Shown: positions 56,555 through 58,183 of the stretch, piece after piece
How positions within the stretch are numbered: the stretch's first letter is position 1
Layout: the number at the start of each line of letters is the position of its first letter
Assembly: GCA_964369545.1 (NCBI GenBank)
Contig: CAYJFA010000004.1
Span: 63,618 to 127,617 of the forward strand
DNA: 64,000 nt
Source: an uncultured Holosporaceae bacterium
GTDB taxonomy: Bacteria > Pseudomonadota > Alphaproteobacteria > UBA3830
Direction: 5' to 3'
Position numbers and translations under genes: made by a program
The notes under the pieces: generated by a model
Database searches by the model: none
Told to the model about the DNA's origin: nothing
Seen by the model: only the letters and a program-made list of their open reading frames with translations

Positions 56555-57482
56555 GATTTTTATGACCTCTTATGAAATCACTGCCACTCATAATATTTTT
56601 TCCTGCTGGTTGAATTAATGTTAATTTTAGAAAACCAACGCCACAAGCTACTAGGGCATTCTTATGTTCTTCTAATATTGTGCCAGCTGATTCGTTTTTG
56701 GATTCATTGCTAACGATGTCTGCATCCAGTATTTTTATACGGATTCCTTCAATTTCAGTCCAAGCTGACGGAGTAGGGGAAAATGCCATGATTTGCTGTA
56801 AAATATTTTCTGCTGATTTTGTCCAGTCGATTTTACATGATTCCTTGGAGAATTTTGCTGCATAAGTCGCTCCACTTTCAGATTGTTTAAGAGTGTTGGA
56901 TAATTTTATTTCAATGTTTTCCAATGTGTCGACAATCATTTCTGACCCAAGGGTTCCCATTTTTTCGGAAAGATCAGCATAGTTAGTTTTTTGATGAATA
57001 TCTAGAAAATTCATAGAAATAATATCTCCGGTATCTATACCTTCGTCCATTTTCATGATTGTTATGCCAGTTTTCTTGTCGCCCGCTAAAATTGCTGATT
57101 GTATCGGAGCCGCGCCACGCCATCTTGGTAAAGCTGATGCGTGAATATTTATGAAACCAAATGGCGGAATATCTAAAATATTACGGGGAACAATCAACCC
57201 ATATGCTGCGACAATCGCGATGTCAGGTTGAAGTAATTGAAATAATTCAAACTGTTCAGCTGAACGTAATGTTTTTGGCGTAAAAACTGGGATTTCGCAT
57301 AATTCCGCAAAATCATGTACTACTGTTTTTTGGATTTTATAATTTCTTCCGTATGGTTTGGGTGCCTGTGTATAAACGGCGATGATCTTAAATTTATCGC
57401 TTTTTTGGTATTTTTTGAATAAAACTTGTAGCGTTTTTAGGGAAAAATCCGATGATCCCATAAAAATAATTCTTTTAGTCAT
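56532..57482 (-). CDS. fmt: Methionyl-tRNA formyltransferase
   Basis: RIIFMGSSDFS..., INIHASALPRWRGAAPIQ, and the C-terminal OB-like domain. It lies downstream of def. Confidence 0.9.
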   Translation of the reverse strand: MTKRIIFMGSSDFSLKTLQVLFKKYQKSDKFKIIAVYTQAPKPYGRNYKIQKTVVHDFAELCEIPVFTPKTLRSAEQFELFQLLQPDIAIVAAYGLIVPRNILDIPPFGFINIHASALPRWRGAAPIQSAILAGDKKTGITIMKMDEGIDTGDIISMNFLDIHQKTNYADLSEKMGTLGSEMIVDTLENIEIKLSNTLKQSESGATYAAKFSKESCKIDWTKSAENILQQIMAFSPTPSAWTEIEGIRIKILDADIVSNESKNESAGTILEEHKNALVACGVGFLKLTLIQPAGKNIMSGSDFIRGHKNLVRKLFN

Positions 57483-58183
57483 TTCTTATCAGCTCTTTGA
57501 ATTATGTTGTCCATTTGGAGATGTAGCAAACCGCTTTTTTGTATTACTTCTAGTGTTTGCATACCCTTAGAATATTCTTTTTGGTTCGATCTATCGACAA
57601 ACACGCATTCAGAAAGATTTTTTCTATTCAATTGATCTATGAATATAACTTTATAATTTTTTTTTGGATTCAATCTATTGATGTATAGTACTCCATCTAA
57701 ATGATCAATTTCATGCTGTATACATGCTGCTAAAAGCCCAGCAGCTTTTTCAATTCGGCATTTCTTAAAGGATTCGTCTAAATATTCAACAGTTACCGAT
57801 GCGTGTCTCATAATGATAGCGCCTATTCCAGGTACAGAAAAACAGCCTTCTGGAGATGATATAAACTCTTCAGATTTCCAAACGATTGTGGGATTTATCA
57901 TTTTATATACAGTAGATGTCGATTGAGAATCCATTGGATTTTCAGGAATATCTAGAACAACAACTCTTTTCAGAATTCCGATTTGTGGTGCAGATAATCC
58001 AGTCCCCTTTTCTGATGTGTGCATTTGTACAAGCATTTGTTCAAGTAAATCAACTGCATCCATATCACCGATTTTAACTTCCGCGCATTTTTTCGATAAA
58101 ATCGGATCTGGATAAATTTTCAGTTCTAACTTAGGAGAACAATTGCATAAAAATAAAATAAATATTAATAGTAATTTTTTCAT
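57479..58183 (-). CDS. Peptide deformylase paralog with an N-terminal hydrophobic leader and a C-terminal extension
   Basis: All three PDF motifs are present: GTGLSAPQIG, EGCFSVPG and QHEIDHLDG. It adds the leader MKKLLLIFILFLCNCSPKLE and about 60 extra C-terminal residues compared with the upstream def. Confidence 0.8.
   Translation of the reverse strand: MKKLLLIFILFLCNCSPKLELKIYPDPILSKKCAEVKIGDMDAVDLLEQMLVQMHTSEKGTGLSAPQIGILKRVVVLDIPENPMDSQSTSTVYKMINPTIVWKSEEFISSPEGCFSVPGIGAIIMRHASVTVEYLDESFKKCRIEKAAGLLAACIQHEIDHLDGVLYINRLNPKKNYKVIFIDQLNRKNLSECVFVDRSNQKEYSKGMQTLEVIQKSGLLHLQMDNIIQRADKK
58056..58120. repeat. Near-identical patch of about 65 nt shared by the two def paralogs (copy in def2)
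   Basis: GCATCCATATCACCGATTTTAACTTCCGCGCATTTTTTCGATAAAATCGGATCTGGATAAATTTT differs from the 58628-58692 copy at only 2-3 positions. The rest of the two genes has diverged. Confidence 0.8.

Follow-up and report, generated by a model that had tools for sequence, protein, structure and literature searches.

Peptide deformylase (PDF) is, in the textbook view, a cytoplasmic, ribosome-bound enzyme and an antibiotic target, and we know of no N-terminal processing enzyme that works outside the cytoplasm. In a 64,000-nucleotide stretch from an uncultured Holosporaceae bacterium (GCA_964369545.1, contig CAYJFA010000004.1, positions 63,618 to 127,617; the whole stretch is called here the window), a second PDF gene, def2, encodes a PDF preceded by a leader that resembles an export signal. 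The closest described enzymes are the type 1B PDFs (Def, EC 3.5.1.88), represented by Escherichia coli Def and the Ehrlichia chaffeensis PDF (3oca), which have the same fold, the same three motifs and the same ligands; def2 likewise lies directly upstream of fmt. Unlike type 1B Def, def2 has an N-terminal signal of the Sec/lipoprotein type, and unlike E. coli Def it has a degenerate basic helix, about 40 extra orphan residues, a 6-aa insertion and a canonical def1 alongside. Accessory PDFs (Vibrio cholerae Def2, PDFs of integrons and mobile elements; PMC12690207) are, like def2, second intact PDFs with divergence concentrated in the ribosome-binding C-terminus. However, those of PMC12690207 are cytoplasmic, often located on mobile elements and linked to inhibitor tolerance, while def2 is an in-operon tandem duplicate with a putative export signal. 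Export is not treated in that 2025 survey, where "lipoprotein" has 0 uses and "signal peptide" one, in the introduction. The eukaryotic organellar PDF1A and PDF1B share with def2 a targeting extension on an ordinary PDF core, directed to another compartment, but their transit peptides lead to compartments with formylating ribosomes, whereas the signal of def2 would lead to a ribosome-free one. A full-text search of the literature returned nothing on periplasmic, secreted, exported or lipoprotein PDFs.

The def2 gene (57479..58183, minus strand) encodes a 234-aa PDF paralogue composed of a leader, a PDF core and a tail, recognized from its open reading frame (ORF), PF01327, TIGR00079, an AlphaFold2 (AF2) model and Foldseek. 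Immediately upstream, def1 (58180..58710, minus strand) encodes a canonical 176-aa PDF with the basic C-terminal helix LSRLKRSRAIQKFKKLQK, as indicated by its ORF, profile matches and alignment. These are the only PDF genes in the 1.12-Mb genome, which has roughly 32% GC, and their products are 52% identical. Judging from the sequences, we consider it probable that def2 is a Sec-exported, lipoprotein-type, catalytically competent PDF that left the ribosome, with def1 as the housekeeping enzyme.

The core (residues 19-171; 57671..58129, minus strand) was delimited by profile, alignment, AF2 and Foldseek. PF01327 matches def2 with 153.6 bits (E 4e-45, cut-off 22.8) over profile positions 3-155 of 156, and TIGR00079 with 133.7 bits, above its cut-off of 103.95. 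In the AF2 model the core has a predicted local distance difference test (pLDDT) score >90, and among the PDB matches listed by Foldseek the best 50 all belong to PDFs (E values down to 9e-15; 38% identity to 3oca). The motifs were examined against GxGxAAxQ (motif 1), EGCxS (motif 2) and HExxH (motif 3). Motif 1 is GTGLSAPQ (G60-Q67; 57983..58006, minus strand), with G62 and Q67 in invariant columns. Motif 2 is EGCFS (E112-S116; 57836..57850, minus strand), with the metal-ligand Cys114 and with E112, G113, C114 and S116 in invariant columns. Motif 3 is QHEIDH (Q156-H161; 57701..57718, minus strand), which contains the metal ligands His157 and His161 and the catalytic Glu158, also in invariant columns. 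In a 44-sequence PDF alignment, def2 in fact has the conserved residue at every invariant column, and the ORF is a full PDF with three motifs exactly as the original prediction had described it. The core is under purifying selection, with a ratio of non-synonymous to synonymous rates (ω) of 0.12-0.15 against the orthologues presented below. On this evidence def2 is probably a working paralogue of the housekeeping PDF that selection has maintained.

A 6-residue insertion was also observed in residues 81-90 of def2 (57914-57943), which read ENPMDSQSTS and correspond to ENPRDPQSPS in the orthologue P0002. It forms a clade-specific loop after the β-strand 74-80 that follows motif 1, and in the alignment it is missing from def1 and from all other PDFs of the family.

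The putative signal peptide comprises residues 1-15 (58139..58183, minus strand), in which the n-region MKK is followed by LLLIFILFL and by the lipobox-like L12-C13-N14-C15. With a mean Kyte-Doolittle value of 3.6, it has the n-/h-region pattern of lipoproteins, and the leader MKKLLLIFILFLCNCSPKLE had been read correctly in the original prediction. Its start ATG overlaps the stop of def1. The possibility of an internal start downstream of the hydrophobic stretch had been raised with that prediction, but in the window codon 1 is followed by no ATG, GTG or TTG until codon 41, which argues that the leader belongs to the protein. At the position homologous to the start of def1 (MEIKIYPDP), def2 has LELKIYPDP, encoded with TTA and CTG.

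We found two orthologues of def2: P0002, 86% identical (locus L003, in the same def1-def2-fmt order), and P0003, 66% identical (locus L026). The 15-residue leader has no indel in either of them. Its ATG overlaps the def1 stop as ATGA in the window and L003, while in L026 it comes immediately after the upstream gene. Both leader Cys are retained, one of them through a synonymous change, and the substitutions within the hydrophobic core exchange one hydrophobic residue for another, with one Leu-to-Ser at the N-terminal edge of the core. Relative to L026, the leader differs at 17% of nucleotides versus about 28% gene-wide, with synonymous sites near saturation (synonymous divergence, dS, ~1.25). 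The lipobox consensus is [LVI][ASTVI][GAS]C, in which the Cys occupies one of positions 15-35. The lipobox of both P0002 and P0003 (LCS/C, the slash marking the cleavage site) agrees with it and passes a PROSITE PS51257-type rule, which only 21 of the 866 long ORFs of the window's own genome pass. This genome encodes Lgt (PF01790, 231 bits) and LspA (PF01252, 124 bits), together with many canonical lipoproteins, including one with another 15-aa leader (MKKILLILCASLTA/C) and one with the lipobox LLCS/C.

A second group of leader-bearing PDFs, clade B, comprises at least eight clusters at 90% (G035 and P0123-P0130), with 74-98% identity. All 8 clusters have a textbook lipobox, L[VI][ST]A/C, and at the loci whose context was read (L018, L051) the gene occupies the same slot in def1-def2-fmt. 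The coding sequence of the clade-B leader is constrained (ω 0.29, from about 6 synonymous changes) and matches Pfam LPAM_1 with 22.2 bits, against a gathering score of 20. No LPAM_1 match was obtained for the leaders of def2 and its orthologues (clade A). Thus the leader, taken in the original prediction for an export-type signal, appears by sequence comparison as a conserved, canonical lipoprotein signal in the orthologues and in a second clade. One more leader-bearing PDF, with VGG/C, is found in G012, which belongs to the window's genus; its gene lies behind a TPR (tetratricopeptide repeat) lipoprotein gene and not beside fmt.

Several points weigh against an exported def2. The window lipobox, L-C-N-C, fails the PS51257-type rule, although at -1 only, where Asn is outside [GAS]. 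The original prediction had placed these Cys outside a canonical lipobox, which holds for the window (LCN/C) but not for the two orthologues, where Ser occupies -1. The codon at this position is AAT in the window and AGT in both orthologues, a single transition, and def2 changed to N14S passes the rule. Lipidation of the window's own def2 is therefore uncertain, given the Asn. Signal peptidase I cleavage follows the -3/-1 rule, and C-N-C/S of the window leader also fits it. The tether from Cys15 to the first PDF strand has only ~4-5 residues, unusually short for a lipoprotein. When the substitutions in clade-A leaders were randomised, p was ~0.27, a comparison with few changes and no power, so the case for the leader rests on the low divergence, the lack of indels and clade B. 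Each clade-A orthologue has an alternative or near-cognate start at codons 19-21 (CTG, GTG, TTG), and T-rich spacers of AT-rich genomes can translate as false hydrophobic leaders. Finally, PDF normally requires Fe2+, which makes both metal supply and enzyme activity in the periplasm a concern.

Some of these points could also be accommodated by a PDF that is tethered to the membrane and faces the cytoplasm. Here the leader would be an uncleaved N-out/C-in anchor near SecYEG or YidC, and def2 would deformylate signal recognition particle (SRP) substrates that escape def1. The imperfect lipobox and the very short tether would suit such an anchor, and the escape of SRP substrates from PDF (PMC5454389) would give a translocon-proximal PDF a plausible job. 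We nevertheless regard this arrangement as unlikely, since the orthologues and clade B have canonical, cleavable signal peptidase II lipoboxes, and a stable transmembrane helix would need a longer hydrophobic core than the 9-10 residues present. According to the positive-inside rule, N-terminal positive charges favour an N-in topology. The MKK charges, at the extreme N-terminus, favour this orientation, with the domain outside.

Slightly less probable, in our opinion, is that def2 is a cytoplasmic accessory PDF translated from CTG21 or a neighbouring codon, the leader being an AT-/T-rich in-frame spacer. Its role would then be like that of other accessory PDFs, for example a different interaction with the ribosome or tolerance to PDF inhibitors (PMC12690207), and such PDFs are common and divergent in the C-terminus (PMC12690207). 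The possible starts at codons 19-21 across the three orthologues favour this explanation, as do the weak substitution statistics of the clade-A leader and the precedent of a false leader in G066, described below. However, the candidate codons vary in kind and position between orthologues, and in the window none of ATG, GTG and TTG precedes codon 41. The leader DNA, in which sequence inspection found no hairpin or terminator, is better conserved than the gene average and free of indels at that dS. The fixed position of the ATG on the def1 stop or against the upstream gene, the retention of both Cys codons, and the ω and LPAM_1 match of clade B also speak against an internal start.

The leader survey covered 45 species genomes of the family, with each PDF extended from stop to stop, a method that yields false leaders. 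Secure leader-bearing PDFs were found in G000, G035 and G012. Among the 120 nearest PDFs of a 5.8-billion-protein collection, a hydrophobic N-terminal extension occurs only in the def2 orthogroup, in fusions with a thioredoxin and in the ambiguous P0007 (G036). In the latter, the string GLAIGFFLTAC belongs to the smpB-def spacer and has no sensible start codon, and it was dropped. The PDF "leader" KKRGFFPLFLFILVSC of G066 (L052:2130-2200) was also dropped, being the translated hairpin of a rho-independent groEL terminator (GGGGATTTTTTCCCC, then a T-run); the real start of this PDF is the Met of MQLKIYPDPVL. Such artefacts should be kept in mind when leader-bearing proteins are counted in AT-rich genomes. 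G020 (L020:1869-2552) carries a def gene duplicated in tandem very recently, which groups with its neighbour as sister (support 100/97), has a 55-aa in-frame upstream extension with LLCCYVVGTC and keeps the internal Met start. The extension is either a candidate leader or a spacer.

The C-terminal region of def2 (residues 172-234; 57482..57670, minus strand), defined by alignment, ω, searches and AF2, comprises a degenerate helix (172-189) and an orphan extension of ~40 aa. Canonical PDFs of the family, def1 included, end in the basic helix exemplified by LSRLKRSRAIQKFKKLQK, and in E. coli Def residues of the C-terminal helix bind uL22 and 23S rRNA (PMC12690207). In def2, LNPKKNYKVIFIDQLNRK aligns with LSRLKRSRAI--QKFKKL of def1, with a 2-aa insert in def2. 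K/R residues number 5 in the helix of def2 and 8 in that of def1, and most of the remaining canonical family PDFs in the comparison have 7-10. The basic amphipathic pattern of a helix that docks on uL22 and 23S rRNA (LSxLKRxxxxxKxxK) is not shown by def2 in the alignment. AF2 places a weak strand of low pLDDT at the position of the helix, and models residues 172-234 as a weak hairpin and a helix with pLDDT 30-64, too low for a fold to be assigned. Contrary to what had been supposed, the tail does not follow a normal C-terminal helix, since the alignment with def1 shows this helix to be degenerate. Of the proposed extra tail of ~60 aa, the part that stands is a conserved, selected and orphan sequence; it begins inside the usual helix region, and the residues that are truly extra number ~40.

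The 63-aa region is 52-84% identical across the three orthologues and under purifying selection (ω 0.18-0.23). A profile of the three tails, searched against 1.84e9 representative proteins, retrieved only itself and a repeat-protein artefact (P0122). Against Pfam, with E up to 10, there was only a chance Acyltransferase match (E 0.095), and against PDB the best E was 0.75.

An orphan tail under selection could be the functional novelty of a protein exported as a periplasmic binder or decoy for actinonin-type natural products that target PDF, or as a peptide-binding module. Accessory PDFs can give tolerance to PDF inhibitors (PMC12690207), and the title of PMC12157366 presents such inhibitors as acting in microbial competition. 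We find this improbable, a shade more so than the internal start, because strong purifying selection has kept all the catalytic residues invariant and not just the binding pocket, a decoy that works stoichiometrically comes at a high cost, and an intracellular symbiont is little exposed to such antibiotics. That def2 is a decaying, functionless duplicate is very improbable: its clade is narrow, with three sequences, and the S14N lipobox mutation is restricted to the window's genome, but with dS reaching 1.25 ω stays at 0.12-0.23 across core and tail, three lineages have an intact ORF, the catalytic residues are all kept and translational coupling is preserved on both sides.

Returning to an exported def2, the most consistent history would begin in a Holosporaceae-like lineage with a tandem def duplicate arising within the def-fmt operon, after which the def2 copy would have gained a Sec-type lipoprotein signal peptide. 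Sec would translocate the protein. For the orthologues and the second clade, acylation of the lipobox Cys and cleavage of the signal by LspA would follow, and their Ser or Val at +2 points to the outer membrane as destination. In the window, Asn at -1 may slow or block LspA processing; the leader would then be cut by signal peptidase I (C-N-C/S) or remain as an uncleaved N-in anchor, leaving the catalytic domain in the periplasm either way. Co-translational deformylation would be left to def1, with its ribosome-binding helix. The orphan ~40-aa tail probably docks def2 to an envelope partner or to the membrane, where the enzyme would hydrolyse N-formyl-Met on peptides and proteins that arrive formylated in the envelope, an activity predicted from its sequence. 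Only one source of formyl groups in the envelope is documented, the SRP-targeted membrane proteins of N-out topology that escape the cytoplasmic PDF (PMC5454389), and these would be an example of such substrates.

More tentatively, and with somewhat less than even confidence, we propose that bacterial proteins do undergo deformylation in the envelope, a maturation step so far undescribed, in which an active PDF anchored in the periplasm or outer membrane clears the formyl groups that escaped the ribosome-bound enzyme. The targets would be N-out membrane proteins, small hydrophobic peptides and released signal-peptide fragments. Removal of formyl groups from peptides sensed by the host, or an action on products of host organelles, as also put forward in the original prediction, is speculation.

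The origin of def2 can be followed in part from its comparison with def1. Over def2 codons 19-45 (58049-58129, minus strand) and def1 codons 4-30 (58621-58701, minus strand), a tract of 27 codons, dS between the two genes is 0.22, and it is 1.57 in the remaining alignment. This contrast in the sequences points to a recent gene conversion of ~80 nt between old paralogues. The tract ends short of the leader, and the Met start was not restored in def2. We also observed that the assembly of a relative breaks at this tract, with the contig ending at 58056-58081. In the trees, PDFs of the family itself enclose both the window clade (support 100/100) and clade B with G012 (88/94). Clades A and B come out apart, although the approximately unbiased test (p = 0.35) does not reject one common origin for every leader-bearing PDF. 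Such an origin would predict the shared def1-def2-fmt position.

Both PDF genes belong to a tightly packed minus-strand chain, in which sequence inspection shows ATGA overlaps coupling def1 to def2 and def2 to fmt. The fmt gene (56532..57482, minus strand; TIGR00460, 299.5 bits) encodes methionyl-tRNA formyltransferase, and its start overlaps the def2 stop. From the ORF list and profile matches, the chain also includes a TlpA-like thioredoxin (60237-60833, minus strand), a DUF4139/MuiA-like protein (58714-60210, minus strand) and a xerC-like recombinase (55628-56554, minus strand), the order being thioredoxin, DUF4139, def1, def2, fmt and xerC-like. The DUF4139/MuiA-like protein, of 498 aa, has its own signal-like N-terminus and its gene sits between the thioredoxin gene and def1. 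It is missing from L004 and L005, two syntenic loci in which def either adjoins the thioredoxin gene or is fused to it. Among public runs, a close relative (another strain, ~92% identical) was found only in a DNA run of an amphibian metagenome. The hosts of the family are most likely protists.

In four relatives, a PDF is fused in frame to a TlpA-like thioredoxin with a signal peptide, and it is the only PDF found there (L004:6001-7212; L005:6001-7152; L023:1263-2597, minus strand; L024:1420-2754, minus strand). Two of the fusions come from species genomes of the same genus (G005, G009). The linker is conserved (…GSxIxSGxVxKxMEILKYGNPIL) and open in frame 0 only, with 3-6 stops in the other two frames. 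The fusions retain the internal Met together with a purine-rich stretch that precedes it. In the sister G004 there is no fusion, and a stop and the Shine-Dalgarno sequence AGGGAG are present. From these sequences, a fusion gene may be the source of an exported fusion as well as of a cytoplasmic PDF. Two-domain proteins were also found in other organisms: P0131-P0137 (326-337 aa) are tandem PDFs with an intact second domain, and in the first one the metal Cys was lost (ESSISL/EASLSI for EGCLS), as was, in some of these proteins, the last His (QHEIDY/QHEIDG).

The presence of thioredoxin-PDF fusions in the same genus suggests, on the sequences compared here, repeated selection in the family for moving PDF across the inner membrane. 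A conserved, intact PDF behind a lipoprotein signal implies formylated substrates in the envelope. In this operon the evolution of the pair is readable, with the parent def1 and the putatively exported daughter def2 joined by a conversion tract, and the helix kept by the parent and lost by the daughter. If this reading is true, the lineage shows the birth of an enzyme, in which a duplicate gains a leader, loses the docking helix and the internal Met, and acquires a tail. An exported PDF would bear on how bacteria control the formyl peptides sensed by their hosts and, if envelope deformylation does take place in this host-associated bacterium, it would also lower the release of N-formyl peptides.

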